Positions 17,168-37,804 are shown, counted from the stretch's first letter. The stretch: 37,804 nucleotides of DNA from a virus (IMGVR_UViG_2565956716_000007); one strand, 5' to 3'. Made by a program: numbers and translations. Notes: generated by a model not told the origin, from the sequence alone.

Positions 17168-17170
17168 AAT

Positions 17171-17838: not shown

Positions 17839-17933
17839 GCTGCTTTCTCCTGAAATAGAGGGCGGTGGACGGGGTTTTGATGTGGTAGTGCCTTTCGCCA
17901 CCCCGTGCCGCCCGTGCGCGGGGGCACGTTCTG

Positions 17934-18584
17934 TCAGCGGCTGTCATTGCGCAGTCTGCGCTCCAGCTGCTGTTTGTCTTTTTTCACGCCACAGCGGGGA
18001 TCGAGCTGTAACGCATGGTTGAGATGATTAAGGGCGGAAGCCGGATTGCTTTCACTCAGGACAGCGCCAATCGCTTTATGCAGACGCGCCCGTGACTGGT
18101 CCGGCATATCCAGACCGTCTGTCAGCTCCAGCGTCTGCAGCAACAGATCGGCATCAAAGCCGGTGGCGGCAAGCATTGCGCTCTGCGCGGCGTCTGCCAT
18201 TTCCTCTGCCAGCACGGTCTGCACGTTGCGGTTACCCAGCGGCATCACCCAGCCATGACGCAGGGCATGACGCCCGATCTCCAGCGCCCCGGCATAATCT
18301 CCGGCATCAATGCGCCACAGCATCACGTACATCAGCACGTCATCCTGTTGAGCGCCTCCGGCAGCCAGGACACCCTCTGCCCAGGCGGCGTACTTCGGCA
18401 GCAGCTCCACCTTGATTTCCGCTTTTTTGACCGTGGACTGAACGCCCTTGAGACGGCGGCGGTCTTCCGCCAGTTGCAGCAGCATCAGGTCATAGCCCGA
18501 TGCGTGGCGAACACTGCCGCCCTCGCGGGCGGCCTGTTCAGCCTGAACGCGCAGGCGATGCTGCCGTGCGGGACTCAGGCTCAT
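17934..18584 (-). CDS. M: terminase endonuclease (small) subunit gpM
   Basis: 216-aa ORF between N and L. Confidence 0.75.
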   Translation of the reverse strand: MSLSPARQHRLRVQAEQAAREGGSVRHASGYDLMLLQLAEDRRRLKGVQSTVKKAEIKVELLPKYAAWAEGVLAAGGAQQDDVLMYVMLWRIDAGDYAGALEIGRHALRHGWVMPLGNRNVQTVLAEEMADAAQSAMLAATGFDADLLLQTLELTDGLDMPDQSRARLHKAIGAVLSESNPASALNHLNHALQLDPRCGVKKDKQQLERRLRNDSR

Positions 18585-18587
18585 GGA

Positions 18588-19646: not shown

Positions 19647-19662
19647 CAGGTTTTGTGCTCCA

Positions 19663-20496
19663 TCAGCAATTGGTCAGAGTGTCAGCGGGGGCGTTACCGC
19701 CTGTTGCACGCTGGCGGTAGTCCTGGCGGCTGTCTTCATGACTCAGCTTATTCACCAGTTCGTTAAAGGCGGTTTGCTGCTCCTGCAGAGCAGTCTCCAG
19801 TTCAGACAGGCGTTCTTCCTGCTCAGACAGGGATTTTTCGGTGCGCGCGCTCAGGTTCTGCTGCTCAGTGGCAACCAGCTCCACGGCCTTATGCACATCA
19901 GAGAACCGGGCGTCATCGGACTGTTCTTTTTTGGTAAACAACGCCGTGACACGGGCAAACAGGGACGGTTTGTCATCCTGGATTTCTTCCAGTTCGATCA
20001 CCGTTTCCTCTGCAGCGGTAAAGAGATTTGCAGGATTCTGCTTGCGGTTTGCCAGCGGGTTATGAGCTGCACTGGCGCTGAATGTCAGCATTTCCGTACC
20101 CAGACTGGCAGGGTCATCAGTGGCCGCCAGGCCGACCAGGTAGGCTTTGCCCGTATCAGCGAACTTCGGGCTGACTTCCATAGAGGTGAATAATTTCTGG
20201 CCTTTTTTCACCAGCTCCACCAGGGATTCCGTTGGCTCAACGTCGGCATACAGCGCCATCTTGCCTGCCAGCGGACCTTCCGTGATTTCTTCGGCAAACA
20301 GCGCCGTCACCTTGCCGTAACGGTTAAAGGTGCTGTCCGGCAGATAAGACTTGATGTGCTCAAGGTTAATCAGCGCGGTATACACCGCCGGGTTGTAGCT
20401 GGCTGCCATCTGTTCCAGCCATTCACGCTGGATTTCGCGTCCGTCGGTGGTGGCACCTTCCACCCCGATGCGAAAACGCTTTGCTTTCACTGTCAT
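19663..20496 (-). CDS. O: capsid scaffolding protein gpO
   Basis: 277-aa ORF with acidic, coiled-coil C-terminal half; divergent from P. Confidence 0.85.
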   Translation of the reverse strand: MTVKAKRFRIGVEGATTDGREIQREWLEQMAASYNPAVYTALINLEHIKSYLPDSTFNRYGKVTALFAEEITEGPLAGKMALYADVEPTESLVELVKKGQKLFTSMEVSPKFADTGKAYLVGLAATDDPASLGTEMLTFSASAAHNPLANRKQNPANLFTAAEETVIELEEIQDDKPSLFARVTALFTKKEQSDDARFSDVHKAVELVATEQQNLSARTEKSLSEQEERLSELETALQEQQTAFNELVNKLSHEDSRQDYRQRATGGNAPADTLTNC

Positions 20497-20574
20497 GAGC
20501 CGTGCTCCGTTAGAAAAAACTTACTGGAGCCTTATGGTTGCGGTGATGGGGGCAGTGAAACAATGCGCGGTATT

Positions 20575-20592
20575 TGTACCGACAACCACACA
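20575..20592. promoter_or_regulatory. candidate late promoter element in the divergent O/P intergenic region
   Basis: TGTaccgacaaccacACA (TGT-N12-ACA), about 87 bp from the O start and 55 bp from the P start. Confidence 0.45.
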
Positions 20593-20638
20593 AACCGCAG
20601 GCGGGGAAAGCCTTCATTCAAGGCTGTAGGTTTGTGCC

Positions 20639-22405
20639 ATGAACACCACACTGACACCCGCAGATCTCGATCCCCGTAGGCAGGCCATGCTGCTGTACTT
20701 TCAGGGATACCGCGTAGCCCGCATTGCTGAAATGCTGGGCGAGAAAGTTGCAACCGTTCACAGCTGGAAAAAACGCGACAAGTGGGGTGACTATGGGCCG
20801 CTGGATCAGATGCAGCTCACCACCGCCGCACGCTACTGCCAGCTCATCATGAAGGAGCACAAAGAAGGGAAAGATTTCAAAGAGATTGACCTGCTGGCGC
20901 GCCAGTCGGAACGCCACGCGCGGATCGGCAAGTTTAACAATGGCGGCAACGAAGCCGACTTAAACCCTAACGTCGCCAACCGTAACAAAGGCCCGCGCCG
21001 TCAGCCGGAAAAGAATGTTTTCACCGATGAGCAGATTGAGAAGCTGGAAGAAATCTTCCATTCCTCCATGTTCAACTACCAGCACCACTGGTGGGAAGCT
21101 GGAAAAACCAACCGCATCCGCAACCTGCTGAAGTCACGCCAGATCGGCGCGACTTTTTACTTTGCCCGTGAAGCCCTGATTGACGCCCTACTGACAGGAC
21201 GCAACCAGATTTTCCTTTCTGCCAGTAAGGCACAGGCTCACGTCTTTAAGCAGTACATCATCGACTTCGCCAAAGAAGTCGAGGTGGAGCTGAAAGGCGA
21301 TCCGATGGTGCTTCCTAACGGGGCCACGCTTTACTTCCTCGGCACCAATGCCCGCACGGCCCAGAGTTACCACGGCAACCTGTATCTGGATGAATATTTC
21401 TGGATACCGAAATTCCAGGAGCTGCGCAAAGTGGCTTCCGGTATGGCTATTCACAAAAAATGGCGACAAACCTATTTTTCCACGCCATCCAGCCTGACAC
21501 ACAGTGCTTATCCGTTCTGGTCCGGTGCGCTGTTTAACCGTGGGCGCAACAAAGCCGATAAGGTGGACATCGACCTGTCCCACAACAATCTGGCCCCCGG
21601 CCTACTGTGCGCAGACGGGCAATACCGCCAGATAGTCACCGTGGAAGATGCGGTGCGCGGCGGCTGTAACCTGTTCGACCTCGACCAGCTACGCATGGAG
21701 TACAGCCCGGACGAATATCAGAACCTGCTCATGTGCGAGTTCGTGGACGATCTCGCGTCCGTGTTCCCGCTCAGCGAACTGCAGGCGTGCATGGTGGACA
21801 GTTGGGAAGTCTGGACCGACTTTCATGCACTGGCCCTGCGCCCGTTTGGCTGGCGCGAGGTGTGGATCGGTTATGACCCGGCAAAAGGTACGCAGAATGG
21901 CGACAGCGCCGGATGCGTGGTGGTGGCACCGCCAGCCGTGCCAGGCGGTAAGTTTCGCATTCTTGAGCGTCACCAGTGGCGCGGGATGGACTTCCGCGCC
22001 CAGGCTGATGCAATCAAAAAACTGACCGAGCAGTACAACGTGACCTATATCGGCATCGACTCGACAGGCGTCGGTCACGGGGTTTATGAGAACGTGAAAG
22101 CGTTCTTTCCTGCCGTCCGGGAGTTTGTCTACAACCCCAACGTTAAAAACGCCCTGGTACTCAAGGCCTACGACATTATCAGCCACCGCCGTCTGGAGTT
22201 TGACGCCGGGCACACCGACATTGCGCAGTCATTCATGGCAATCCGTCGCGCCACCACCGCCAGCGGCAACCGCCCGACCTATGAAGCTAGCCGCAGCGAA
22301 GAAGCCAGCCACGCCGATCTGGCCTGGGCAACAATGCACGCACTGTTTAACGAACCGCTGCAGGGCGAGTCCGCCAATACCAGCAATATTGTGGAGATTT
22401 TTTGA
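20639..22405 (+). CDS. P: terminase large (ATPase) subunit gpP
   Basis: 588-aa ORF, P2 P-like size, divergent from O; recognised as the large terminase by size and position, nuclease-domain motifs not verified. Confidence 0.9.
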   Translation: MNTTLTPADLDPRRQAMLLYFQGYRVARIAEMLGEKVATVHSWKKRDKWGDYGPLDQMQLTTAARYCQLIMKEHKEGKDFKEIDLLARQSERHARIGKFNNGGNEADLNPNVANRNKGPRRQPEKNVFTDEQIEKLEEIFHSSMFNYQHHWWEAGKTNRIRNLLKSRQIGATFYFAREALIDALLTGRNQIFLSASKAQAHVFKQYIIDFAKEVEVELKGDPMVLPNGATLYFLGTNARTAQSYHGNLYLDEYFWIPKFQELRKVASGMAIHKKWRQTYFSTPSSLTHSAYPFWSGALFNRGRNKADKVDIDLSHNNLAPGLLCADGQYRQIVTVEDAVRGGCNLFDLDQLRMEYSPDEYQNLLMCEFVDDLASVFPLSELQACMVDSWEVWTDFHALALRPFGWREVWIGYDPAKGTQNGDSAGCVVVAPPAVPGGKFRILERHQWRGMDFRAQADAIKKLTEQYNVTYIGIDSTGVGHGVYENVKAFFPAVREFVYNPNVKNALVLKAYDIISHRRLEFDAGHTDIAQSFMAIRRATTASGNRPTYEASRSEEASHADLAWATMHALFNEPLQGESANTSNIVEIF

Positions 22406-23445
22406 TGGGAAAGAGTAAGAAAAACCGCGCTGCGGCGACGAAACGGAGCCAGCATAAAAATCAAACTTCAGCCGAAGCTTTCAGCTTTGGTGATCCCATT
22501 CCTGTACTGGACCGCCGCGAACTGCTGGACTATGTGGAATGCGTACAGACGGATCGCTGGTATGAGCCACCCGTAAGTTTTGACGGACTGGCGCGCACCT
22601 TCCGGGCTGCCGTGCATCACAGTTCCCCGATTGCAGTAAAGTGCAACATTCTGACCAGTACCTATATCCCTCATCCGCTGCTCAGCCAACAGGCTTTTTC
22701 GCGTTTTGTGCAGGACTATCTGGTATTTGGTAACGCCTACCTGGAGAAACGCACGAACCGATTCGGTGAAGTTATCGCCCTTGAGCCTGCGCTGGCAAAA
22801 TACACCCGACGAGGGTTAGACCTGGAGACCTACTGGTTTGTGCAATACGGCATGACTACGCAGCCGTATCAGTTCACGAAAGGCAGCATTTTTCATCTGA
22901 TGGAACCGGACATCAACCAGGAGATCTACGGCCTGCCCGGTTATCTTTCTGCCATTCCGTCAGCCCTGCTCAACGAGTCCGCCACGCTGTTCCGCCGTAA
23001 GTATTACATCAACGGCAGCCATGCAGGCTTCATCATGTACATGACCGATGCCGCGCAGAACCAGGAGGATGTGAACAACCTCCGCAATGCGATGAAAAGC
23101 GCCAAAGGCCCTGGCAACTTCCGCAACCTGTTTATGTACTCGCCTAACGGCAAAAAGGACGGGCTTCAGATTATTCCTCTGTCAGAAGTCGCGGCAAAGG
23201 ATGAATTTTTGAATATCAAGAACGTGAGCCGGGATGACATGATGGCAGCGCATCGTGTTCCGCCACAGATGATGGGGATTATGCCGAATAATGTCGGGGG
23301 GTTTGGGGATGTGGAGAAGGCCAGCCGCGTTTTTGTTCGAAATGAACTGATCCCCCTACAGAAGCGTTTTGAGGAACTGAATAGCTGGGCCAATGAACAA
23401 GTAATTCGTTTTGATTCTTATGCATTTGAACCCAACATAACTTAA
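22402..23445 (+). CDS. Q: portal protein gpQ
   Basis: 347-aa ORF coupled to P by 4-nt overlap; P2 Q-like size. Confidence 0.9.
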   Translation: MMGKSKKNRAAATKRSQHKNQTSAEAFSFGDPIPVLDRRELLDYVECVQTDRWYEPPVSFDGLARTFRAAVHHSSPIAVKCNILTSTYIPHPLLSQQAFSRFVQDYLVFGNAYLEKRTNRFGEVIALEPALAKYTRRGLDLETYWFVQYGMTTQPYQFTKGSIFHLMEPDINQEIYGLPGYLSAIPSALLNESATLFRRKYYINGSHAGFIMYMTDAAQNQEDVNNLRNAMKSAKGPGNFRNLFMYSPNGKKDGLQIIPLSEVAAKDEFLNIKNVSRDDMMAAHRVPPQMMGIMPNNVGGFGDVEKASRVFVRNELIPLQKRFEELNSWANEQVIRFDSYAFEPNIT

Positions 23446-23466
23446 TGATTTTTTTGAACAAACAAA

Positions 23467-23489
23467 ACCCGCGTTGGCGAATCGCGGGT
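23467..23489 (-). terminator. hairpin terminator between Q and the 413-aa cargo gene
   Basis: ACCCGCG-ttggcgaa-TCGCGGGT with a T-rich run on the minus-strand side. Confidence 0.4.
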
Positions 23490-23496
23490 CATTTGT

Positions 23497-24738
23497 CTAT
23501 AAATCTTCTTGTGTAGGAAGTGTCGAGATATCACCTCCATAATTTATTTCAATCTCTGGAAATCGTTCTCGCCACTGTTCAAAAGTTTTTGGAATAGTTT
23601 TTTTCCATTTATGTACATTTGTGAAATAACGAATTTCACCATCATTGAGATAAATAGCCCATATCTCGCCATCTCTACCAAACATCACCATACCTTCCGC
23701 AATGGTATAAAGTCCTCTAACTCCTCCCTGATAAGCCTTTGCGACAAAAGTATCAAGATTATCGTGCTCACCTATTTGCTCCATCACTTTTTTCAGTTCA
23801 AAGTAATATTGCCCCATAACGTTGTATAATCTCTGAAGTTCCATTTCATTTGCAAAACCAAATAAAAACAAATGATCCTCTGCACAACGAAACTCACCAT
23901 CAAAAAAGGCCCCCATACCTCGCCAGTATTGACAACTAACGGTCTCACTTATCCTAATATATCGTTTACCATCAAATATGCTGCGCCTAAAACTCAACTC
24001 GCCAAATTCATTACTTCCAGGTATTTTTATTCTAGCGTAAGCTGAATCTCTAGCTACAAAAACCGCCTCTCCTGTAATACTCCCAGAATGTGATCCATTC
24101 ATAACTACTAAATCAAAAAGAAAACCATTTGACGATGTTTCACGAATAAATAATTTGCCAAAATTACTTCTGCGATTGTCCTTGTACCACTCCCCCCACC
24201 ATATTGGTGCATTTAAACCTGAAGAAATAGCTCCTTGGCTTGAATCACTCAAGGACTCCCTTAATGCAGTTTCAAGTCGCCCTTGCAGTAAGCTTCTTAC
24301 CTCAGGTTTTGAATCACTATCAGGGTCCATAGTATATGCAATTACCCTCCGTCCTCTTAAGTCAAAAGGAAGTTCTTCTGGAGAACCATAAAATGTATTC
24401 TGGACCATGATTACTCTATCCCAGCCTAGCTGGGATACTGCATATCCTAATTCAATCAAAACATTTGGATTAGGTGTCTTCTTATCCTCAGACCTTCCAT
24501 TTATGATAGAAACATCGGCAACAAAAACATCTGAAAGTGATATTTTATTAAAAATGCTTTCGCTAATTGATGGTGAGCCATTTAAACCATTAGTATCACG
24601 ATCCAAGACTGGCTCCAATGTTTCTGTTTCATCCTTTTTTATTGCTTTTAGAGATCTAACCAAAGCATCTTGAATTAAATTTCTATTACATTTTCCATTT
24701 AAATCAGATTGCCAAGAGTAAAAAACTATTCTTTGCAT
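23497..24738 (-). CDS. hypothetical protein, N-terminal TIR-like domain with uncharacterised C-terminal domain (candidate defence cargo)
   Basis: 413-aa ORF with GAGGAG RBS 8 nt upstream; N-terminus RIVFYSWQSD...DVFVADVS...NPNVLIELGYA...LPFDLRGRRVIAY fits the TIR-like pattern; AT-rich relative to flanking genes. Confidence 0.7.
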   Translation of the reverse strand: MQRIVFYSWQSDLNGKCNRNLIQDALVRSLKAIKKDETETLEPVLDRDTNGLNGSPSISESIFNKISLSDVFVADVSIINGRSEDKKTPNPNVLIELGYAVSQLGWDRVIMVQNTFYGSPEELPFDLRGRRVIAYTMDPDSDSKPEVRSLLQGRLETALRESLSDSSQGAISSGLNAPIWWGEWYKDNRRSNFGKLFIRETSSNGFLFDLVVMNGSHSGSITGEAVFVARDSAYARIKIPGSNEFGELSFRRSIFDGKRYIRISETVSCQYWRGMGAFFDGEFRCAEDHLFLFGFANEMELQRLYNVMGQYYFELKKVMEQIGEHDNLDTFVAKAYQGGVRGLYTIAEGMVMFGRDGEIWAIYLNDGEIRYFTNVHKWKKTIPKTFEQWRERFPEIEINYGGDISTLPTQEDL

Positions 24739-24820
24739 TTGCCATTCTCCTCATCCTTTTATTGCCAGATTATCTAAAAACATAGTCGAAGTGAATTCTT
24801 ATCGAACCGTATTGCGCGCA

Positions 24821-24839
24821 CTCGTATCCCCGCCACGCC
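24821..24839 (-). other. putative cos (cohesive end) site
   Basis: Minus-strand GGCGTGGCGGGGATACGAG shares its first 13 nt with the P2/186 cohesive-end sequence as I recall it; position between Q and the early region fits. Confidence 0.3.
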
Positions 24840-24888
24840 TGCCCGCTTTATGTAGTGGTTTTCATGCACCTGCATGATCTACGCAAAA

Positions 24889-24909
24889 GCCCGCCAGTTC
24901 TGGCGGGCC
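24889..24909 (-). terminator. hairpin downstream of the DinI-like gene
   Basis: GCCCGCCAG-ttc-CTGGCGGGC perfect 9-bp stem. Confidence 0.35.
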
Positions 24910-25043
24910 TTAGCAAAAACGATCCTCAAACGATCATGCGATCTCATGCGGCATAGACATGCACTACAGAGCTAACGCCTCGCAAGGGCTCGTTGTTCAA
25001 CCTTGCTGACGCCAGAAGCAAGTTCAGACGCCAGCAACGTTTC

Positions 25044-25277
25044 CTAATGCAGCCAGCTGTCGTCTTCCCACACCTTCTGCATAATTTTCATCACTTGTTT
25101 TCTTTCTTCGTCCAGTTGCAGTCCGGTTAGTTCCACACCGTTAGAGCTACCTTTGCGAATGCGAATTACCGTTTTGGGATACAGGGGGCGCAGATTGCGG
25201 TAAAGCTCGGATTCAAGGGCGTCCAGGGTAGACTGGCTAATCTTCTGCTCTTTATCGATCATTATTTCAATGCGCAT
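25044..25277 (-). CDS. DinI-like protein (SOS-module component)
   Basis: MRIEIMIDKEQKISQSTLDALESELYRNL...KVWEDDSW follows the DinI pattern; GAGGTGA RBS upstream. Confidence 0.7.
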   Translation of the reverse strand: MRIEIMIDKEQKISQSTLDALESELYRNLRPLYPKTVIRIRKGSSNGVELTGLQLDEERKQVMKIMQKVWEDDSWLH

Positions 25278-25287
25278 AAAAGTCACC

Positions 25288-25476
25288 TCAGCTGATGACA
25301 TCCATTGAGCGGTTGTATTCGTGGGTTCTGATTTTTGCCATGAGTTCATCAGTCAATTCAGAAACCCACTGCAGAGCCAGCCCCTTCTCTTCATCACTAC
25401 ACTCACTAGCCGCTACAAGCTTAAGAAAAAAATCAATGCGCTGGAGCTTCAAAGACTCCAAAAAATAGTCCTGCAT
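25288..25476 (-). CDS. small protein, first gene of the LexA-boxed operon (tum-like N-terminal part?)
   Basis: 62 aa from MQDYFLESL with GGAGG RBS; ends 11 nt before the DinI-like start in another frame. Confidence 0.45.
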   Translation of the reverse strand: MQDYFLESLKLQRIDFFLKLVAASECSDEEKGLALQWVSELTDELMAKIRTHEYNRSMDVIS

Positions 25477-25518
25477 CTTTCCTCCTATGACACCACACGC
25501 AATACTGTATGTATAACC

Positions 25519-25537
25519 ACTGTTTATATTTACAGTA
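25519..25537 (-). promoter_or_regulatory. LexA (SOS) box
   Basis: ACTGTTTATATTTACAGTA matches CTGT-N8-ACAG; an overlapping weaker box is at 25503..25522; about 45 bp upstream of the ATG at 25476. Confidence 0.6.
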
Positions 25538-25629
25538 TATAATAATCTTACTGATGTAAAACGTTTTTTTACGTTCATCAGCCTGATATGCCTGGTATTA
25601 TTAAGAGCACGAATTGTTAACCCGCGTAA

Positions 25630-28044
25630 TTAATACAGGTTCCGCCACTGATCATCTTCCTGCAAACGCTGGTTCCGATAGAAGATACGCAGGCCTGCTC
25701 CTGACGGAATACTGCCTCCGCGAAGGAGTAAATCGACCTCTTTCTCGCTGCCATCAAATCCTCTGGACTTCAGCTCATACACGAGCTGCAGTCGCTGATG
25801 GTCTGTAATTCGCTGTTTGTAGTCTTTACGCCGTTTCGGTTTCACCAGGCGTAACCTTGCTGCCAGTTCCCGGCGCTCTTTTTTGCTCATACTGTGCAGG
25901 TAATCGTGCAACTCCTTGTCATCCATGCTGGTAATGTCCGTTCTGGGGTCCCCATCAGCTGATTTATCTTTCTCCTGTTGGTTCAAATTTTCAGCAAGGG
26001 GACAGTTATTGCCACGAGTCCAAGGGGCGCAAGCGCCCTGGTCGGCTGCCGCCTCCTGAACGTCAACGGCCTTACGAACCATTTTCCACTTCACGGCATG
26101 AGTGCAGATCTTGCCCTCTGCAATAGGTGACCAGATGCCATAAATACGAATGCCGTGATCGCCATAGGCGGTCGGCTCTTCGTTGATTTCATACGCAGTT
26201 CTGATGAGGTGATATTTACGGGGAACCAGTACGCCGCCCTGCTTCATGATGTAGGTGGCAAAACAACCAGCATCAGCAGCAGCCAGGATTGCATCAAGGC
26301 GCGGGTTATCCAGTACCGGCGCACCTGCTTTTTTGTCACCCTGTTGCCTTGCCGCCTGACCAGCCAGCAATCGCAGTTCACGGTAAGCCTGACGCCCCGG
26401 AATGCCAAAGAAGCGGAATTGCTGAACACGATGCAGAGACGCCCAGGCATTCACGTATTCAGCGTTATCACGCAGGGATTTACCCGTTTCCTTGCTGATC
26501 TCGCCAGCCAGACCACGCCCGTCAATGTTCTTACTGATATATTTCGCGATGTAGCTTGTCGGCGTTCCTTTGCGCGGGTTAATCAACTCAGACTTAAAGC
26601 GCGGCCCCGTGTTATTGCCCAGCTCCTCGCGGTCTTCACGGATGGCAAACTTACGCAGTAATGCAGTGATGGCGCGGCGGTCTTTTTTGCGCATAAAACA
26701 CAACAGGTGCCAGTGAACTGTACCGTCATGATGCGGCTCAGCCACCCGTACGCCATACCAGCGCAATCCGGCTTTGTGCATCGCCTTACGAAATGCAGCA
26801 AACATGCCGACCAAATAATCACTGCTTTGTCTTACCGTCGCATTTGTCCAGTTCGGGTTGGGCCTGCCGTTATTTAGCGTGGAATGGAAACGTGACGGAC
26901 AGGTGATGGTGTAGAAAACGGCGCAGTCACCGCGCATTTCCGCGATAAGTTCCAGACCTTTAACACAGGCCATCATCTCATTGCGGCGATGCGCAGGGTT
27001 GCTGCTGCTGGCGTTTACCACATCCTCCATGTCCAGCGTGTCGCCGTCTTCGTTCACCAGTTCATGAGAACGGAAAAACTCCAGCGACTTACGGCGCTGC
27101 TCACGTTTATGCATCACGGCTTCATAGCTGACATAAGGAGATGCTTTTTTGCTGACCAGGCAGACAGCGCGCAACTGCTCTTCCCGCCATTCGCAACGCA
27201 TCTTCCATAATTTCCGATACCACCAGTCGGCGCACAGCATACGCGCCAGCGAACCCGGAATGAGTTCATAGGGCACAGGTTTGCGGCGGTTTCTTTTCCG
27301 GCGGAGTTGCTCAAACGCAGGCGGTATGACATCCAGTCGCAGGGTTTCTGCTGCCACCTTTTCCCATGTCTTGCGGATTTCTTCCGGCTTAACATCATCG
27401 GAGGCGTACAAATCACCACAAGCGGCATCAAGACACATGCTCATATGCGCAGCGACAAGGGTGGACAGGCGTTTCACCTGATCCTGACTCATTTCAGGCA
27501 GGATCAGCAGACCGTCCAGCCCTTCATGGCTTGCCATAAAACGAAAAGATGCAGATAGCTGGCTGTCGCGTACATGCTCCAGTCGTTCCAGGCATGGCTT
27601 AATCGTCTCACGCAAATAGCGGGAATAAGCCTTTGGCCTGCCCAGGTTGCTGAAGTATTTAATACGTTGCATCAGCGGCTTGCTGATATGGGAAGGCTGG
27701 GCGTTGACATCCGCCAGAATGACCATGTCTGGATTAAAACGCTGCTGCTCATGCGCCAGCTTTGCCCGGCTAATTAGCTTATCCTGCTCCATTTCGCGCT
27801 GGACAGGATCACGGGATTCATTAAAGAAATAACGCTCCCAGACCTGATCACTCAGTGCCTCGCGGCGCAGTTGTTCCTGCTCGTTATCGGCAGCGTACAG
27901 AGTGATCAGGTTTGAAAGCGCAGAAACCGGCGCAACTTCCGCCGGGTCCAGATAAGGGTTAATGGCCTTTTTCGGGCTGTTCCATGAGAATGCTGCGGCA
28001 GCCTCGTTAAAGCCGCAGCAGTTGTTCATATCGGCATGACTCAT
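25630..28044 (-). CDS. A: replication initiation protein gpA (rolling-circle endonuclease)
   Basis: 804-aa ORF, the largest early gene, at the P2/186 A position; start overlaps the dam stop. Confidence 0.85.
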
Positions 28045-28898
28045 GCACGTACTCCGTACACGGCAGAACTGTCCACGCCACGCGAATAATCAAATCCCAC
28101 CCAGCAGCGCGGCCCGGAAACAGCAATGATTTCTGTTGCTGATTTACCCTCGCCAGCTGCCACACCGATGTTGCGTTTTGCCTTGATGTAGTGGTGAGTA
28201 AAATTGCGATACAGCGAACGGATCAGGGATGTGTCACTGTTAGAAACAATGACCGGATGTCCTTCTGATGACCGATGTTCAAGAACGGATGCCAGGTGAT
28301 ACTGGTCATCTTCAGTGAAGCCGTCAGTGTGATAACCGGAAAACGTGCCGTCATACGGCGGATCGCAATACACCACATCCCCCGCCTTCAACATCGCCAG
28401 CGTTTCATCAAAGCTGGCGCAGATAAACGTTGCCCGCTGGGCTTTTTCTGCAAATGCGCGAATTTCTTTTTCAGGGAAATACGGATTTTTATAATTACCG
28501 TAGGGAATGTTGAAATGCCCGCTCTTGTTATAGCGACATAAACCACGGTAACCGTGACGATTGAGATACAGGAAATATACCGCTTTCATGAAATCAGTAA
28601 TTTCAGTGGAGTAATTAAACTCCTGCCTTATGTTGTAATAAGCCACCTCCCTGTTTGCGATCTCAAATAAAACTCTGGCGCGAGATATAAACGATTCACA
28701 ATCAGCGGCAACCTTTTTATAGAGGTTGATTAAATCAGGATTAATATCCGCAACCAGATAGCTGGGGTAATCCGTCTCCATCATCACAGCACAGGAACCC
28801 GCGAAAGGTTCAACCAGTCGCGGGCCAGCAGGAAGGTGTTTTTTCAGTTCGGACATAATGGCGGTTTTATTTCCCGCCCATTTCAGGATGGTGCTCAT
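28041..28898 (-). CDS. dam: DNA adenine methyltransferase (Dam-like)
   Basis: N-terminal LKWAGNK and catalytic DPPY motif ([10 protein letters not shown]); GGAGG RBS; start taken at the internal Met. Confidence 0.85.
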
Positions 28899-29122
28899 AC
28901 AGCACCTCCGTTGTAATGTTTGCCTTTCAGCTCTGCGATTTCCTGACAGGTAATGCAAAGCTGCACACCTGGAATGGCGCGGCGGCGTGCTGGCGGAATT
29001 GGCGCTTCACACTCAATGCAAAGCACGCGGGACACGCCCGGCGTTTTGGCACGGGCAGCACGGATATGGCGCTGGCGTTCTTCTTCAACGCGCTGCTGTA
29101 CAAGATCCATTGCATCAGCCAT
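28895..29122 (-). CDS. TraR/DksA-family C4 zinc-finger protein
   Basis: 75-aa ORF with CIECEAPIPPARRRAIPGVQLCITC. Confidence 0.7.
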   Translation of the reverse strand: MADAMDLVQQRVEEERQRHIRAARAKTPGVSRVLCIECEAPIPPARRRAIPGVQLCITCQEIAELKGKHYNGGAV

Positions 29123-29361
29123 TAGTGGATCTCCTGCGCTTCGTTCTGGATTGCTTCAGCAGTTACACGCAGTAGTTCTGCTGCTTCGACGTGGTTTAGC
29201 TGGCGGGATGTGATATGACACGCCAGGCTATCAAGGCGAGCTGCCATTGCTTCAGCCCTTGCCCGGCGTTCTTCCAGACGAGCCTCTGTCAGTAAAATAT
29301 TAAGCCCTGCATCATCCGGTCCGGTTTTAGTCGTGAGGGTTTCAATATTACGCATAATCAA
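29122..29361 (-). CDS. hypothetical early protein
   Basis: 79-aa ORF translationally coupled to the downstream gene. Confidence 0.45.
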   Translation of the reverse strand: MIMRNIETLTTKTGPDDAGLNILLTEARLEERRARAEAMAARLDSLACHITSRQLNHVEAAELLRVTAEAIQNEAQEIH

Positions 29362-29422
29362 TTCTCCTGAATTTAGATAAAGGGATACCCGGCGGGTTTA
29401 CGCCATTAATTTCATTAGTTGG

Positions 29423-29764
29423 TTAATTCGGCATGGTTAGCCGTCTGGGAAATAAGCTCACCACTGCACGAAAATGATTCATTGCTTTAATCAACTCCCG
29501 CTTTTCGTCAGTGGTCAGCTCATTAATGCTGATGCTATGACGTTCAGCTGGAATTTTTGCCATAAAGAATATAGCAGCCAGTGCCCGTTTATTTTGTTCG
29601 TTATTGATATCCCGTGGATCACGCATATCTTTAATAAACCGCTCAAGCTCTGACTCAATATTCAGGCCAAATACTTTCGCCCTTAACTCCGCAATATGGT
29701 TAAGTCCATTCAGGCGTTCACCGGGGCTTAATGGAACAGTCGCCGCAGCGCCTTCAATAGCCAT
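29423..29764 (-). CDS. hypothetical early protein
   Basis: 113-aa ORF in the early operon; true start uncertain. Confidence 0.4.
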   Translation of the reverse strand: MAIEGAAATVPLSPGERLNGLNHIAELRAKVFGLNIESELERFIKDMRDPRDINNEQNKRALAAIFFMAKIPAERHSISINELTTDEKRELIKAMNHFRAVVSLFPRRLTMPN

Positions 29765-29958
29765 TTGTTCCCCCGTTTTTTCGTAGATAGTTCTGCCAGC
29801 AATTCATCTTGTGAACGGCACGGATGCCAGCGTTTACCATCCTCCCCCATGATCCAGCCGTGACCGTAGTGCATTGCCGGGCTTTGTTTTACCAGCAGCG
29901 ATGCAAATGATGGTTCTTTCGTCAGCATAAGCACCTCACAGCAAACCGAATGACGCAC
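29728..29958 (-). CDS. hypothetical early protein
   Basis: 76-aa ORF overlapping the cII 3' end; true start uncertain. Confidence 0.35.
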   Translation of the reverse strand: MRHSVCCEVLMLTKEPSFASLLVKQSPAMHYGHGWIMGEDGKRWHPCRSQDELLAELSTKKRGNKWLLKALRRLFH

Positions 29959-30445
29959 CGAGGCCAGTTACAGTATCAACTGCACTTGCCATCGCAGGAT
30001 TAGCCTGTAAACGGGCCTGCAATGAAACAGCCGCCAGCGCCATCAGTCGTGTTACAGAGTTAATGCTGCTGATAGCATCACGACGACCTGCACTGGTTTT
30101 TACATCGCCAGATACCGCACCTGCAGCAACACGCCCGATCTCTGCAGTTGCACTCATGACGTAATGCGGCAGTTTCTCTTTTGCCACCTCATTAATCGGA
30201 ACACATGGCAGACAATGAATCTGTGCCAGAAAACCGTCTACCAACGTTGAATCTTCAGTCAGATCGGTAAGCAACCAGATTTCTGGTGCGGTGAGCTGAT
30301 GCGGTTGATCTGGATTGAGTTTGTTTCGCAGTGTCTGAACATTCATTCCTGCACGTTCTGCCAGCTTTGCCATATTGTGACGTAGTGCAAAAGCTCTACA
30401 GGCTTCATCAAAATGCGGATGTTTGGAAATCTTGTAATCAAACAT
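29936..30445 (-). CDS. cII: CII-like lysogeny establishment regulator
   Basis: 169 aa, the length of 186 CII; N-terminal HTH region; directly downstream of apl. Confidence 0.7.
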   Translation of the reverse strand: MFDYKISKHPHFDEACRAFALRHNMAKLAERAGMNVQTLRNKLNPDQPHQLTAPEIWLLTDLTEDSTLVDGFLAQIHCLPCVPINEVAKEKLPHYVMSATAEIGRVAAGAVSGDVKTSAGRRDAISSINSVTRLMALAAVSLQARLQANPAMASAVDTVTGLGASFGLL

Positions 30446-30477
30446 GCTGCCCCCTTAGAAAGTTCTCATAATTGAAC

Positions 30478-30726
30478 TTAGTCACCAACGATGACATTAA
30501 AGTTGAAATTGGATTGGCCCATGTTTTTCCTGACTTGTTCCTTTTTGTACTCAAGGTAACGTATACATACTCTGTCTTTCGGTTTTTCTTTTCTTTCCAA
30601 GAATTTAGCGAGTTTACCATTATGAATCATTTGATATACCGAACCGCGAGAGCGGCCTTCCCATTCCGCGAACTCAGCTGGTGTCGCCATCACTTTTGGT
30701 ACACGAATTGAAATGTCGTTGCTCAT
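30478..30726 (-). CDS. apl: Apl/Cox-like excisionase and lytic regulator
   Basis: 82-aa HTH protein, first gene of the lytic operon, divergent from cI. Confidence 0.7.
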   Translation of the reverse strand: MSNDISIRVPKVMATPAEFAEWEGRSRGSVYQMIHNGKLAKFLERKEKPKDRVCIRYLEYKKEQVRKNMGQSNFNFNVIVGD

Positions 30727-30785
30727 AGTGCAGTATCTCTCGATTAAGGTTTGGTTTACGTCGTTTTATCTTGTTTTATTTGATT

Positions 30786-30828
30786 CAATATTTGATACAC
30801 CAAGATACTACGATCCAATATTTGATAC
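30786..30828. promoter_or_regulatory. operator-like direct repeats in the cI/apl switch region
   Basis: CAATATTTGATAC occurs twice, 30 bp apart (30786..30798 and 30816..30828), between the divergent apl and cI genes. Confidence 0.4.
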
Positions 30829-30845
30829 GTCAACAGGGTTAAAAA

Positions 30846-31478
30846 ATGATACAAGTAAAAGCTGGCGAGAATACAGGGGGAAGAGAGGCTATCCATAGGC
30901 TAATGGCAGCCTATGATTTCAAGTCCAGACAGCAACTTTGCGATCACTTGGGCGCATCAAAAAGCACTATGGCAAACAGATACTTAAGAGATAGTTTTCC
31001 TGCAGAATGGGTGATTCAGTGCGCTTTGGAAACAGGAGTTTCTTTACTGTGGCTAACTACCGGACAGGGCGATCCAGGTTCAAACATTGACCCTAAAAAA
31101 AATATCAATTCCGTGAACTCTAGCAAAGTTAAACCTCTTTCGGAGCTTGTATCTCCTGAAATTGACAAGGCAACTCTCAACGGAGGTTTGCTGATCGATG
31201 CTGGAAAAGCAATCATTGATAGCAGCATACTCCCCTCAGACTCAAGCAACCTGCTGCTGGTGACTACTTCTGGTGATTCTTATTTAATAGATCGCAACCA
31301 AACACCACCAGTAAATGGTACGTGGTTAGTGGACATCGACGGGATAAAAAGCATTGTAAAATTGACACGACTCCCGGGAAACAGATTAGTAGTGCATCAG
31401 GATGATTCATCGTTTGAGTGCGAACTGGATGACATTGAGGTAATAGGCCGCGCACTGAAAATCATTAAGAGCCTTTGA
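30846..31478 (+). CDS. cI: CI-like immunity repressor
   Basis: 210-aa ORF divergent from apl and followed by int (186 layout); true start may be an internal Met. Confidence 0.7.
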   Translation: MIQVKAGENTGGREAIHRLMAAYDFKSRQQLCDHLGASKSTMANRYLRDSFPAEWVIQCALETGVSLLWLTTGQGDPGSNIDPKKNINSVNSSKVKPLSELVSPEIDKATLNGGLLIDAGKAIIDSSILPSDSSNLLLVTTSGDSYLIDRNQTPPVNGTWLVDIDGIKSIVKLTRLPGNRLVVHQDDSSFECELDDIEVIGRALKIIKSL

Positions 31479-31479
31479 T

Positions 31480-32493
31480 ATGACCATCAGAAAACAGCCG
31501 AACGGAAAGTGGTTATGTGAATGCTACCCAAACGGGCGAGATGGCAAACGCGTACGCAAACAATTTGCGACGAAAGGCGAAGCCATTGCGTTTGAGAATT
31601 TCACCATGGACGAGGTAAACAAGAAACCTTGGCTGGGAGAAAAGGAAGATCGGCGACACCTATCAGAATTAATTGAGCTGTGGTATTCCCTGTATGGTCA
31701 AACACTCGCAGACCCCAAGCGACTCATGGCGAAACTTGGAATTATCTGTAATGGTCTGGGCGATCCCATCGCTTCAGAGCTGACTGCCGGTGACTTTACG
31801 AAATACCGCGAAGCACGGCTAAAAGGTGAAGTGCGAAATGAAGATGGCACGCTGATGTCGCCCGTTAAGCCCCGCACGGTAAACCTTGAACAGCGCAATC
31901 TATCATCTGTGTTCGGTACATTAAAAAAACTAGGACACTGGTCAGCACCAAACCCGCTGGCAGGACTTCCGACCTTCAAAATTGCCGAAGGTGAGCTGGC
32001 TTTTCTTTCCACGGACGAAATCAAGCGCCTGTTGGCGGCATGTGCTGAATCTCAAAGCCCTAGCTTACTAATGATTGCAAAAATATGCCTGGCTACTGGC
32101 GCACGGTGGAGTGAAGCCGAAAATCTGCAGGGCCATCAAATATCGAAATACCGAATTACTTATACAAAAACAAAAGGCAAGAAAAACCGTACTGTGCCGA
32201 TATCTCAGGATCTGTATGATGAACTCCCCAAAAACAGAGGAAAGTTATTCACGCCATGCAGAAAAGCCTTTGAGCGGGCAGTAAAGCGGGCCGGTATTGA
32301 CCTACCGGAGGGCCAATGCACCCACGTGCTTCGCCATACATTCGCCAGTCACTTTATGATGAACGGCGGAAACATACTGGTACTGCGTGATATTTTGGGT
32401 CATGCCGATATAAAAATGACCATGATTTACGCCCACTTTTCGCCCGATCACCTTGAAGACGCGGTGACTAAAAATCCTCTTTATAATTTGTAG
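31480..32493 (+). CDS. int: tyrosine integrase (P2/186 Int family)
   Basis: 337-aa ORF with C-terminal catalytic region HVLRHTFASHF...LGHADIKMTMIYAH. Confidence 0.9.
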   Translation: MTIRKQPNGKWLCECYPNGRDGKRVRKQFATKGEAIAFENFTMDEVNKKPWLGEKEDRRHLSELIELWYSLYGQTLADPKRLMAKLGIICNGLGDPIASELTAGDFTKYREARLKGEVRNEDGTLMSPVKPRTVNLEQRNLSSVFGTLKKLGHWSAPNPLAGLPTFKIAEGELAFLSTDEIKRLLAACAESQSPSLLMIAKICLATGARWSEAENLQGHQISKYRITYTKTKGKKNRTVPISQDLYDELPKNRGKLFTPCRKAFERAVKRAGIDLPEGQCTHVLRHTFASHFMMNGGNILVLRDILGHADIKMTMIYAHFSPDHLEDAVTKNPLYNL

Positions 32494-32505
32494 TGGAGAC
32501 CTATT

Positions 32506-34026
32506 GTGATTCAAAAATTAGATATTCAATCTGATGCGGTTGCAAAGTTAAGAATGGATGCTATTCGTTCAGAAATCCAAGGTTATTCCCCTGATTTATT
32601 TATCGAATTCTGTATGCAATATAACTTACAAAAATTTGAAGATAATATCCACATGTTACGACACATGCCTTGGATTGTTAATTTATGTCTAAAGTGGTCT
32701 GCGTCAGTAACTGGCAAGAATAAAAAATTCAAAATCCTCGATAAAAATCAAGCAATAAAACTCTTCCAAAAAACTTATGAAACCTTGAACATTATTCCTA
32801 TCGGTCTTGAGAGGAAGAATGGCATGCATTTCTTCATTAGAAATAATCTATACCAACAAGGAATCTACCAGAAAATTGACGCTCTAAACACAATTAGCAG
32901 ACAAGTCTTTCTATTTTCAGAACTTGAAAAAAACCATAAAATAAAGACAAGTTTTTTTACTATCACGAATGTATCTATCGAAGACTTTCTTAAGCTATCT
33001 TACATATTAATAACTCACATAACAGAAGAGCATCCCGTGAGAAAAATGAATGTAGATACATTTACTATATTATTTGACATCATTCCTAGAAATACCATTG
33101 AGAAATTTCTTGATGCAATATCAATAAATTACAATGAACTATCTACATTTTGCAAATCAAAAACCTATGATAAACCTTTGCTTGAATACTACTCATCATC
33201 ACCTTTCCTTGAAAAACCATTAATAAAAAAAGGTTCAGAGTATTTTCAGATACACACACAACTGACTTCAACAAGCATACAGACGTTCATATATGATCTT
33301 TTAAGAAGAACTGATGCCGAGAAGTTCATGGATAGCTTTGGAAATGTATTTGAAAATGCACTGGAATTAATACTAAAAGAAAGCGAAATTGATTTTCATA
33401 ACGAAAAATACCTTAAAGAACGACTACCTAAAGATAATAAAGTAGTTGATTATTTCATTCCACATACTGAGGCAAATATTTTCATTGATGCTAAAGGCGT
33501 TGAGATACACCAAAAAGGCATGGTAACATTACGCCCTGAGGATATTGCAGGAAAAATAAAGAAATCGGTATTAAAAGCAATCGAACAATCTCACGAAGTT
33601 AATCGAGAAATATACTCTAATGAGCGAATAATAGCTCCATTCAGGGCTAACTCATATATCATTTGCATTACATATAAAAACCTTTTCTTAGGCAATGGTA
33701 GTATCCTAGCTAATACTTATGCTAAAGATGAGATGAATAAGATATATGACAAGTTTAAACATAACTATCATATCCCTACAGAGAATATTTTTTGTCTATC
33801 ATTTGAAGAGTTTGAATATCTCATTGCATCATGCAAAAGGTTTAAAATTCCGCCTCATGAAGTCTTGCAATCTGCAGTTGAAAAGAACAAAAAACCATCA
33901 AGTGCTGCTTTCCTATTTTCCCACCATATAGAAGACTATTTTGATAGAGTAGTCAATTCAGTCATAGTCAATGAGGCAGGCATTAAAATGGTAGATTCTA
34001 TTATCAATAAATTAAAGCCTGAATAA
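32506..34026 (+). CDS. hypothetical protein with PD-(D/E)xK-like nuclease motif (AT-rich cargo between int and att)
   Basis: 506-aa ORF with GTG start and GGAG 7 nt upstream; strongly AT-rich; FENALELIL...VVDYFIP...IFIDAKG resembles E / D / D-x-K nuclease motifs. Confidence 0.7.
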   Translation: MIQKLDIQSDAVAKLRMDAIRSEIQGYSPDLFIEFCMQYNLQKFEDNIHMLRHMPWIVNLCLKWSASVTGKNKKFKILDKNQAIKLFQKTYETLNIIPIGLERKNGMHFFIRNNLYQQGIYQKIDALNTISRQVFLFSELEKNHKIKTSFFTITNVSIEDFLKLSYILITHITEEHPVRKMNVDTFTILFDIIPRNTIEKFLDAISINYNELSTFCKSKTYDKPLLEYYSSSPFLEKPLIKKGSEYFQIHTQLTSTSIQTFIYDLLRRTDAEKFMDSFGNVFENALELILKESEIDFHNEKYLKERLPKDNKVVDYFIPHTEANIFIDAKGVEIHQKGMVTLRPEDIAGKIKKSVLKAIEQSHEVNREIYSNERIIAPFRANSYIICITYKNLFLGNGSILANTYAKDEMNKIYDKFKHNYHIPTENIFCLSFEEFEYLIASCKRFKIPPHEVLQSAVEKNKKPSSAAFLFSHHIEDYFDRVVNSVIVNEAGIKMVDSIINKLKPE

Positions 34027-34158
34027 GTCTCCCAAGCAAAACCAGTGGCGGCATTTTGGCGGCAGAGCATTAAAAATGCGTAAAACAGACAAACACAAAA
34101 TAATACTAACATACTGATTTTAAACATAAGTTCATGTTTTTGTTATAGTAAAAATGGT

Positions 34159-34203
34159 ATGTAGGAATTTCGGACGCGGGTTCAACTCCCGCCAGCTCCA
34201 CCA
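34159..34203 (+). repeat. 45-bp att core (ssrA 3' end), right copy
   Basis: Exact copy of 1016..1060; flanks diverge immediately on both sides. Confidence 0.75.
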
Positions 34204-34330
34204 ATCATGATTGGACGGTATAAGGACAACACCAATAAAAACAGGAAGTTAGCAGTCTCAGCAGGACACCGACCAGACGGTGAAGAGACATAAAAGGATA
34301 CGCAAAGGAGCCGCGGCTCCTGGTGACATG

Positions 34331-34363: not shown

Positions 34364-37027
34364 TCAGAACGACCAGTTCACACCAGCTACCCCGTTCCAC
34401 GGGGATTCCACACCGGCACCATGGCTATACCCCACCCCAAGATGCCCGCTTAACGTACTGCTGAATGAGGCTTTAATACCTGCCTGGTATATTCCACGTC
34501 TGCCCGACAAATCATTGACGAAATTACCGTCACTATTCACTTTCACCCGGTTATCATCGACAAATTCTTTGCGCACAGCCGCCTTCAGCCACGGCTCAAC
34601 TTCCATACCGTTCCCCAGACGCATGTTGTAACTCAGCGTTGCACCCAGTTCACGATATAAACTGCGGGTATCGACTGATTTCGATTCCATGCCATTGGAT
34701 AAATGATATTCAGGGTTATCAGCGGTGAACCCCCGTTAACGATGCATACGGCGTCAGGTTCCAGTTACCATCGGTAAATCGCATCCCGGTTTCAATGTGA
34801 CCGCCCAGCCCGTTGCTGCGATAACTGCCGTTGGCGGCTCCACCGCTGCCAACCGTGGAGTCGCGAGCTTCGGTACCTGCTAATACCAATAAATTACCGC
34901 CATTTTCCAGCAACATATTGGTCGCTAAATTGCCGGAAATGGAAAAAGTGCCGTACTGGTGAGTACCGCTGATTTCAATACCGTTACCATAATTCTGAAC
35001 GGTTTGCGTGCCACCATTGATGTGTGTTTTCTCTGTTGACCCACCATCAACAATTTGTTCACCACTTTCGATATTTGCCTCAGTGGCTAATCCATATACC
35101 GTTTGCTTGCCACCTTTGATATTTGCTTTATCAGAAGTGGCACTGGCATATATTGTTTGGGTGCCAGCACTATTGAGTACAGTGCCAACATCTTTTCCAT
35201 AAACATCCATTTTGCCGTTGGCATTAATAATCGTATCAACTGCCCGGGAACCAGTGACGACTGTTAATGAGCCAGCGTTTTCCAGCACTACATTTTTAGC
35301 TTCTGAATTCCTGATGTAGAAAGCATCACCATAACTGTTGGTTCCTTCGATAAGGGTTCCGGAAGTTGTGGAAGCAATTAATGCGCCGCCGGATTGTTGC
35401 TCAACATGCTTAGCCTCACCACCGTCCTGAACCTCCAGAACGCCACCATTATTAAGTCTGGTGGTATCTGTTTTAGCCTCCTTCTGGACAATCAGCTTAC
35501 CGCCAGCATCAACGGTAGTATTTTTCGCCGAGGTTTTAGCCACTACCGTCAGTTCGCCGGTATTTTCCAGCACAACATAATTAGCCTCCCCTCCGGTAAT
35601 AGTGAAGTGAGAGAGCTTGTTGTATCCTTCAATATCAGTCCCTGCGCCCGTGTTGGCAACTAAAGCACTGCCCGTCTCCTGGTTAACCCCATGTGCAATA
35701 CCACCGGTATAGACAATCAGCGAGCCTCCGGCGCTAATATTGCTGCCAGTTGCCGTACCATCTTTCTCAACAACCTGCCGGCTCCCGGAGGATATAATTG
35801 TCGTGTCAGCTTTCCCGCCGCTCTTGATATTTTGCGTTCCGCCGTTGATATTGGTACCCGTGGCAATACCATGATTATTAATATTCTGTGTACCACCATT
35901 GATTATGGTATTGGTCGCGTTTCCGGTAACATCCATTACCCCGCCGTTATCTATTCGGGTCGCATCAGCTTTAGCATTCGTTAAAACTGACATTGTTCCT
36001 TTATCTTTAATAATCGTCTTGTTTGCCGAACCATATGCGTTTATGTCTAAATGACCACCGTTTTCCAGCAACACATTGTCTGCCACGTGATTGTGGATGG
36101 AGAATGCACCTTCACTATTCGTACCGCTCACCGTCGTACCGTTAGTGTTTGTTTTTAAAATTGCACCATCGTGCTGGGTAACATTTGTTGCCGTACCACC
36201 ACTAACATCAAGCACGCCACCGGAATAAACTTCAATAACATCCGAGGAGCTGGTGTAATCAACAATTTGCGTACCACCAGAATAGATCTGAGTATTTTTG
36301 CCGTTGACTTATTATTCAGAGACTGAGTTCCACCTTCAATCGTCGTGTCCAGCGCATGGCTTTCATATACTCTTTGCTCACCGCCATTTTTAATGGTGGT
36401 TGTTCCTACTGTGCTCTGTTCAACATACTGTCGTCCACCATTTATGATTGTGTTCGTTGCAATACTTCCTTGCGTGATGTCCTGATAACCGGACTTATTT
36501 ATCGTTGTACCATCAACATGCCCCTGAGTTGTTACTTTCTGCCCTCCACCATCAATGATGGTTCCATTCGCAGTCCCCCCACTTATGTGTGAATTACCAC
36601 CCTTAATTGTCGTTCCATTGCTGATACCACCTGTATAAACGTCCTGATTGCCACTGTCGATTATCGTACCGGTGGAAATGCCCCCGTCATGAATTGTCTG
36701 TCTTCCTCCGTTAATGGTTGTATTATTAGCCTGCCCCACAAAATTGTTATGACTTCCTACATCTTGATATCCACCCGATTCAATAAGACTTCCATTAGAT
36801 ACCCCGCCATGAACATTCTGCTGGCCATGGTTGATAATATGAGTGTTATTTGTTGTACCTCGTTCATCTACTCTTTGGCTGCCATCTACAGTCTCATCGT
36901 TTACCACACCAATAACATCAGGAGTGAAGGCCGTCATCCCAGGCGGGGCATATATCAAGGCAGATATCAATAAGGAAAGTACTGAGCGGCGACAATAATG
37001 GGGACTGGTCCTGTTCATAAATTTCAT
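34364..37027 (-). pseudogene. autotransporter adhesin, frameshifted
   Basis: Three consecutive same-strand ORFs in different frames: extended signal peptide and passenger repeats (36155..37027), passenger repeats (34719..36215), beta-barrel C-terminus ending NWSF (34364..34690). Confidence 0.7.
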
Positions 37028-37287
37028 CCTCTGAAAAGTGAATACTGAGTAGCGTTTAAGCGACCTTAGCTCTGCTGCAACATCAGCCCACAGGCACCAG
37101 ACCAGGGGATTCATCCTGAAGAGACAGCGCAAGTGTATTGTGTTCACCGCTCATCAAAGACATCATGATGAAATGATGATATTCCACATAAGAAAGAAGC
37201 ATTTTTTAAACGCAGTGCGCTGAAGTATGGTTGGATAAAAAAGTCAATCTATTCAGGGAATACGGGGGTATTCTTTTCTTTCGACAA

Positions 37288-37580
37288 TCAGGCCGTCGGC
37301 AAAATAAAATGATTTACATAATCGTTTCTGATGAATATCTTCTGCTCACATAAAAATAACACAATAACTTTGAGATCGCAGATTCTTTTACTTTTACAGC
37401 ATTCGTCCCCCCATTGTTGGGCAAATATAGATTGGGCCAGAGCACGAAAGTTAATACCACGTTTGCACAGCTCCTCCAACAGCACGACAAGATGCCACAT
37501 ACTGCGCCCCAGTCGGTTCGGTTTACAGACTACCCGTGCGTCCACCGCCGATAATGTCCTGAGCAGTTTTTTCAGTCCGG
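37288..37580 (-). pseudogene. serine recombinase (Pin-like invertase) fragment
   Basis: Encodes GLKKLLRTLS...RLGRSMWHLVVLLEELCKRGINFRAL, homologous to the middle of the prophage invertase; no catalytic N-terminus or C-terminal HTH. Confidence 0.55.
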
Positions 37581-37760
37581 ACCTCCTGCCACGGTTTTAC
37601 GTTGAAGAGGTAACCCTGAGCACGCAGTTCATCAGTCAGGCGTGGTGTACCGTAACCCTATTATTGATGGGTAAGATCAAAAAAACTTTCAGGCAGCTAA
37701 GGAAAGTTGAACCAGACATTAGAATAAATATTTCAACCAATTACAGCACCAATTCAGACA

Positions 37761-37804
37761 CCGCCAGCTCAACAAATAAATCAAGGGGTTACGTGAAAGC
37801 GTAG
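37761..37804 (+). repeat. degenerate third copy of ssrA 3' end plus terminator start
   Basis: CCGCCAGCTC-AACAAATAAATCAAGGGGTTACGTGAAAGCGTAG matches 1046..1090 with one deletion and one substitution; truncated by the window edge. Confidence 0.55.

Follow-up and report, generated by a model that had tools for sequence, protein, structure and literature searches.

The gene between the integrase gene (int) and the right attachment site of an Escherichia coli prophage very probably encodes a single-protein anti-phage defence of the GapS1 (GAPS1) family, carried as cargo in the int–attR slot of a 186/P2-like (Peduoviridae) prophage that is integrated in ssrA. The prophage lies in a window of 37,804 nucleotides (nt), the whole stretch of viral DNA analysed here (IMGVR_UViG_2565956716_000007). 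The product of the gene is a full-length, ordinary member of the GapS1 family, which has already been described, and the gene itself is already annotated, leaving no claim of discovery to be made. A preliminary description of this DNA had proposed a standalone PD-(D/E)xK nuclease-type defence gene as prophage cargo, and this proposal was borne out, as GapS1 is a validated single-protein PD-(D/E)xK anti-phage family. The features on which the analysis rests are collected in Table 1.

Table 1. Features of the prophage and of the gapS1 locus, in positions of the window.
Feature	Position	Strand	Basis or remark
attL core, 3′ end of intact ssrA (tmRNA)	1016..1061	+	46-bp direct repeat
Prophage tyrosine integrase (int)	31480..32493	+	Open reading frame (ORF) and tyrosine-recombinase profile matches; annotated as site-specific integrase
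GGAG, Shine-Dalgarno-like	32495..32498	+	7 nt before the GTG, 1 nt past the int stop; from sequence
gapS1	32506..34026	+	506-aa ORF, GTG start; NCBIfam NF047931 match; RefSeq WP_000615103.1
N-terminal domain, aa 1–272, mostly helical	32506..33321	+	Presumed sensor, regulatory or nucleic-acid-binding part
PD-(D/E)xK nuclease core, aa ~271–440	33316..33825	+	E283, E300, D315, D328-A-K330, Q361
attR core, 46-bp copy of the ssrA 3′ end, right prophage boundary	34159..34204	+	Exact repeat of 1016..1061

The gene product belongs to the GapS1 family

The 506-aa protein matched the NCBIfam model NF047931 (antiphage_GapS1) with an E value of 3e-128 and a score of 428.5 bits, above the curated cut-off of 320 bits, its residues 20–474 covering the profile from position 1 to 455 of 455. 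Consistent with this, the RefSeq (PGAP) record of the identical gene is labelled 'gapS1: GapS1 family protein'. Every feature of GapS1 membership that was open to test was found, namely a full-length profile score, the active site and a single gene of ~500 aa. Support from curated profiles comprises this one NCBIfam model and one PHROG (phrog_14259, function not assigned; only function-less PHROG families were matched), as neither Pfam nor PADLOC-DB v2.0.0 holds a model of the family. The only Pfam match to the protein was to TPD, below threshold (E = 0.029), and was dismissed as chance; PADLOC-DB v2.0.0 (2023) returned no match, probably because this release is older than the description of GAPS1. 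No relative emerged when the PDB was searched by sequence and by profile.

A profile search of 1.84 billion representatives recovered 1545 relatives at E ≤ 0.001. Full-length relatives are mostly ~490–530 aa long and match in one stretch, and shorter entries cover part of the profile. The gene has no conserved partner: its neighbours here are int and attR, and the genes downstream vary between loci that carry GapS1 alleles. Three other PD-(D/E)xK defence families that had been suggested for comparison were rejected. The Shedu-like architecture offered as a possibility by the preliminary description found no backing, as no DUF4263 profile matched in Pfam or PADLOC and the N-terminal domain differs. 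Hachiman HamA likewise failed, with no DUF1837 profile match and no HamB helicase gene adjacent, and so did the Mrr (Type IV restriction) family, with no Mrr_cat match in Pfam or NCBIfam.

Mahata et al. (Salomon lab) discovered GAPS1 in a Gamma-Mobile-Trio (GMT) island of Vibrio; the system consists of one protein, which has a PD-(D/E)xK phosphodiesterase domain at its C terminus and protects against coliphages (bioRxiv 10.1101/2023.03.28.534373). In that work, defence against T7 was lost with D313A or K328A in Vibrio GAPS1, T7 escapers mapped to capsid gene 10, and co-expression of Gp10 with GAPS1 caused a growth arrest with viability kept, which the authors termed dormancy (bioRxiv 10.1101/2023.03.28.534373). 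Three plasmid-expressed E. coli homologues protected against diverse lytic coliphages, and in E. coli ZH142-A the endogenous homologue was needed for protection and growth arrest was seen; identity between Vibrio GAPS1 and the E. coli homologues is 24–29% (bioRxiv 10.1101/2023.03.28.534373). The literature searched reports no biochemical nuclease activity or substrate for any GapS1. The preliminary description had also considered the gene as candidate abortive-infection cargo; here a correction applies, the reported outcome of GAPS1 being reversible dormancy and not cell death.

The prototype, WP_005477165.1 of Vibrio parahaemolyticus, is of the same size class (~500 aa) and the same single-gene make-up as the protein here, but it sits in a GMT island whereas the present gene sits in the int–attR slot of a 186/P2-like prophage. 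WP_152927281.1 and EJP5250929.1 are two of the tested E. coli homologues. Over the first 126 residues, which is all that the published 5′ parts of the constructs (~400 nt) cover, WP_152927281.1 is 100% identical to residues 17–142 of family member P0004 and EJP5250929.1 is 100% identical to P0017; P0004 and P0017 are 78% and 58% identical to the GapS1 protein here, respectively. The accession WP_000615103 does not occur in those parts of the GAPS1 paper's supplement that were searched, and WP_194242909.1, the endogenous homologue of ZH142-A, was not recognised among the relatives found here.

gapS1 is accessory cargo between int and attR

The 46-bp repeat corresponds to the ssrA 3′ end and therefore marks attL and attR (Table 1). 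The two copies bound a prophage of ~33 kb that is integrated in ssrA. The tmRNA gene occupies 698..1060, the attR repeat matched ssrA in 5426 of 5426 E. coli genomes, and gapS1 ends 132 nt before it. The prophage backbone is 186-like, with genes for a CI repressor, CII, Fil, DUF5347, DUF2732, TraR/DksA, a D12 methylase and a gpA replication endonuclease.

The preliminary description had considered that the ORF might be a conserved core gene of related ssrA-integrated prophages. It is not: gapS1 is accessory cargo, because the slot is filled by different genes in related ssrA prophages. The ssrA prophages of E. coli 4314 and 4012 have the same backbone and an int that is ~83% identical, and between int and attR they carry a 222-aa hypothetical gene (4314) or 403-aa and 300-aa hypothetical genes (4012). 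These slot occupants (L003, 4028..4696; L004, 4525..5736 and 5821..6723) matched nothing in Pfam, PADLOC or NCBIfam; their location makes them possible defence candidates of an uncharacterised kind. The int–att interval has been reported as a minor defence hotspot that accounts for 3% of defence systems in P2-like phages.

Further gapS1 alleles, 78% and 49% identical to the one here, sit in the same slot of other 186-like prophages of E. coli and K. pneumoniae. The int and gapS1 genes diverge together, at nucleotide identities of ~85% and ~75%, respectively, with cI at ~94%. The exact gene is rare in E. coli, being present in 15 of 5426 complete genomes at 99.8–100% identity, and 12 records of Klebsiella Peduoviridae phages contain it at 99.9% nucleotide identity. 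In the Kp48xx-2 phages (OK490395 and relatives) it lies at the same prophage end. Over almost its whole length (1062..34158), the prophage is 96–99% identical to Klebsiella phage Kp4845-2 (L010, OK490395.1), the unmatched parts being 1062–1981, 6095–6523, most of 9634–11133 (except for 266 bp that match at 89%) and the hotspot at 23364–24813. At the portal/gpA hotspot the E. coli prophage has an ORF with a TIR domain and the Klebsiella phage has other cargo. This high identity, together with the differing hotspot cargo, points to a recent sharing of the phage across genera, in which hotspot cassettes would have been exchanged and gapS1 kept. More distantly, a protein of Klebsiella phage ST437-OXA245phi4.1 (NC_049448) is 48.6% identical to GapS1 here, and Phold had previously marked it as GAPS1-like. 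An INPHARED survey reported GAPS1 and Lamassu-Fam in 12 phages.

Several further loci were noted. The 413-aa TIR ORF (23497..24738, − strand) lies in the prophage's other low-G+C island (G+C 0.369, GC3 0.258) and is flanked by a portal-like ORF (22402..23445) and a gpA-like replication gene (25630..28044). Its N-terminal part matched the TIR domain of the CAP12/Pycsar-effector type (PF10137, E = 6.6e-6, 26.6 bits against a gathering threshold of 24.7), and it matched the PADLOC TIR 'Effector' model (E = 1.8e-9); there was no NCBIfam hit, and the ~260-aa C-terminal part had no match. Situated in the classical P2 hotspot, it is a candidate TIR defence gene of the standalone kind. Past attR, the ypjA/ehaD autotransporter gene (34364..37804, − strand) is broken, compared with an intact gene of 4575 nt in E. 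coli ETEC4089: between 34849 and 34984 it lacks ~2 kb of the repetitive passenger region, and the rest, only 93% identical, lies in three frames (ORFs 34364..34690, 34719..36215 and 36155..37147). In one genome with the 78%-identical gapS1 allele (L005), a P4-like satellite (7885..11838) follows directly after attR and encodes an integrase, Psu, Ogr/Delta and a 913-aa protein of the nSTAND1/Mrr_cat type, the last probably an Avs-like defence gene. Here a P2-like and a P4-like element stand in tandem at ssrA, and their defence cargo is stacked.

The recurrence of alleles 49–100% identical in the int-proximal slot of 186-like E. coli and Klebsiella prophages, the joint divergence of int and gapS1 and the near-identity of the whole prophage to Kp4845-2 could also mean that this family member was selected to keep out competing Peduoviridae, temperate phages of other kinds or P4-like satellites, to the benefit of the prophage itself, and that its trigger is not a T7-like capsid; hotspots of P2-like phages are known reservoirs of systems against competing phages. 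We consider this improbable, given that the E. coli homologues examined by experiment act against lytic coliphages of diverse kinds and that family members are found outside prophages too, the Vibrio GMT islands being an example. Such a role would, moreover, refine the reading of gapS1 as a GapS1-family defence gene and not replace it.

The nuclease domain retains the GAPS1 active site

The preliminary description had picked out three motifs, FENALELIL, VVDYFIP and IFIDAKG, as an arrangement typical of restriction-endonuclease-fold nucleases. They begin at residues 282, 313 and 325 and supply E283, D315, D328 and K330. The Vibrio sequence derived from the published mutagenesis primers, VV-D313-FLHQRNGTSIFID-A-K328-GVE, aligns residue by residue with VV-D315-YFIPHTEANIFID-A-K330-GVE here (segments compared: VVD313FLHQRNGTSIFIDAK328GVE in Vibrio and VVD315YFIPHTEANIFIDAK330GVE here), and the spacing is the same, D315…D328-A-K330 corresponding to D313…D326-A-K328 in the prototype. 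D315 and K330, which had been proposed for mutation, are thus the positional equivalents of the two residues whose alanine mutants lost defence in Vibrio GAPS1. In an alignment of 122 relatives, with a median identity of 25% to the protein here, D315, K330 and Q361 were conserved in 100%, position 328 was always D or E, and E283 and E300 were conserved in 95% and 96%, respectively.

An AlphaFold (AF2) model of the protein (pLDDT 88.7, pTM 0.88) matched restriction-endonuclease folds. The preliminary description had staked its reading on a nuclease fold in residues 280–340, and the model predicts one for residues ~271–440. The best fold matches comprised N.BspD6I and R.BspD6I, which are Type IIS or nicking enzymes, together with other restriction enzymes.

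Such matches raise the question of whether the protein could be a Type IIS or Type IV restriction endonuclease that cuts foreign DNA according to its sequence or modification and may work together with the DNA adenine methylase of the prophage. In favour of this, the nuclease core is preceded by a winged-helix-like element, an order also seen in FokI-type enzymes, and the D12-class methylase gene lies ~3.5 kb away. However, the methylase is a conserved backbone gene that occurs also in prophages with different cargo in the slot, and one genome with an intact gapS1 has it frameshifted. No Mrr or restriction-enzyme profile matched the sequence. For the family, T7 escapes map to the capsid gene and not to DNA sites or modification genes, and the capsid alone activates without phage DNA. 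A restriction enzyme is therefore a very improbable identity.

gapS1 is intact, poor in G+C and probably co-transcribed with int

The preliminary description had placed a 506-aa ORF with a GTG start immediately after int and a GGAG 7 nt upstream of it, and the sequence agrees in each respect (Table 1). It had also judged the G+C content to lie far below the prophage average, which the calculation confirmed: gapS1 has a G+C content of 0.314 (31.4%) and a GC3 of 0.278, against 0.512 for the prophage overall and 0.53 for the prophage without its two low-G+C islands. Among all windows of 1521 bp in the prophage (mean 0.518, s.d. 0.058), gapS1 is the one with the lowest G+C. A comparison with the L005 allele, which is 78% identical and occupies the equivalent slot, gave pN = 0.13, pS = 0.69 and a dN/dS of ~0.075; gapS1 is therefore under purifying selection, and it is intact.

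The stop codon of int (TAG, 32491–32493) is separated from gapS1 by 12 nt, and both genes have the same orientation. No terminator-like site was found on the + strand between them, and a promoter scan found promoter-like sites no more commonly than expected by chance, so that we claim no promoter of its own for gapS1. Because the gap is 12 nt, gapS1 has its own GGAG and no terminator intervenes, the gene is probably co-transcribed with int. Divergent gapS1 alleles keep both the Shine-Dalgarno sequence and the short distance to int.

The tested homologue WP_152927281.1 begins at a methionine equivalent to M17, and the NF047931 profile begins at residue 20; codons 1–16 (32506..32553) may for these reasons be dispensable, or the annotation of the start may vary between records. 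The L005 allele, 78% identical, likewise starts at GTG, and the upstream GTG, the GGAG and the encoded peptide are kept in divergent gapS1 alleles.

That gapS1 is a decaying or silent passenger without current function, left beside att by an illegitimate event, would suit its very low G+C, the lack of a convincing promoter of its own and its rarity in E. coli, but we give this almost no credence in view of the intact 506-codon ORF, its near-identity across the 15 E. coli genomes and 12 Klebsiella phage records, the low dN/dS, the retention of all catalytic residues and the conserved Shine-Dalgarno sequence and int spacing in divergent alleles.

A model for GapS1 action in the prophage

Taken as a GapS1-family defence gene, gapS1 would be expressed in the lysogen, probably on the cI–int transcript, as the gene layout suggests. 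On infection by another phage, the protein would sense a phage structural protein, as Vibrio GAPS1 does with T7 Gp10, presumably through its N-terminal helical/winged-helix domain of ~270 residues. Sensing would then switch on the C-terminal PD-(D/E)xK phosphodiesterase, whose predicted key residues are E283, D315, D328, K330 and Q361; this step draws on the requirement for D313 and K328 in Vibrio GAPS1 and on the conservation and fold of the protein here. The expected outcome is a non-lytic growth arrest or dormancy that halts phage production, as observed with Vibrio GAPS1 and the endogenous E. coli homologue. By analogy with the tested proteins, the closest of which matches the 78%-identical member, the allele here would be expected to confer phage resistance that depends on its nuclease residues. 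Both the capsid trigger and the dormancy outcome come mainly from work with Vibrio GAPS1, and they may differ between alleles.

The GAPS1 paper makes no assignment for the N-terminal domain of GapS1 (bioRxiv 10.1101/2023.03.28.534373). Nor do the other papers searched or the preliminary description, which left residues 1–280 without a name. In our model, residues ~195–250 have a winged-helix-like order of elements (H195–204, E206–208, H209–217, H224–229, E239–242 and E245–248, where H is helix and E is strand). The domain also resembles Upx, a Salmonella single-protein dual-nuclease defence of ~1270 residues (PDB 9wuf) whose C-terminal PD-(D/E)xK nuclease degrades single-stranded DNA (ssDNA) and single-stranded RNA in a Mg2+-dependent manner, whose middle domain regulates that nuclease, and which is activated by phage terminase (PMC13099982; bioRxiv 10.64898/2026.04.30.721860). 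The likeness is structural only, and the fold search did not give the region of Upx that aligns. Within its ~1270 residues Upx has an additional nuclease at the N terminus and a sensor domain of its own, whereas GapS1 here has 506 aa. At the sequence and profile level no similarity was found (no PADLOC hit; the GapS1 profile misses 9wuf at E ≤ 10), and we rejected membership in Upx on the grounds of length (506 aa against ~1200–1270 aa) and the missing profile match. GAPS1 is mentioned in neither Upx paper (PMC13099982; bioRxiv 10.64898/2026.04.30.721860), and the GAPS1 paper draws no link to Upx.

It is conceivable, if somewhat unlikely, that residues 1–272 of GapS1 are homologous to a domain of Upx and that GapS1 is a 'minimal Upx', in which a common regulatory or nucleic-acid-binding module is joined to a PD-(D/E)xK nuclease of the same type, without the extra N-terminal nuclease and sensor. 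If so, the two would be predicted to share a Mg2+-dependent degradation of ssDNA or RNA and an auto-inhibition that is lifted by a phage morphogenesis protein. The possible structural relationship between GapS1 and Upx is a lead and not a finding, and the sole novelty that remains in this locus; as such, it offers a testable handle on the substrate and the activation mechanism of GapS1.

For the family, the locus identifies GapS1 as a recurrent occupant of a minor int–att hotspot in 186/P2-like prophages that are common to E. coli and Klebsiella, with alleles 49–100% identical. The allele here is a natural candidate for a comparison of trigger specificity with the tested allele that matches the 78%-identical family member.
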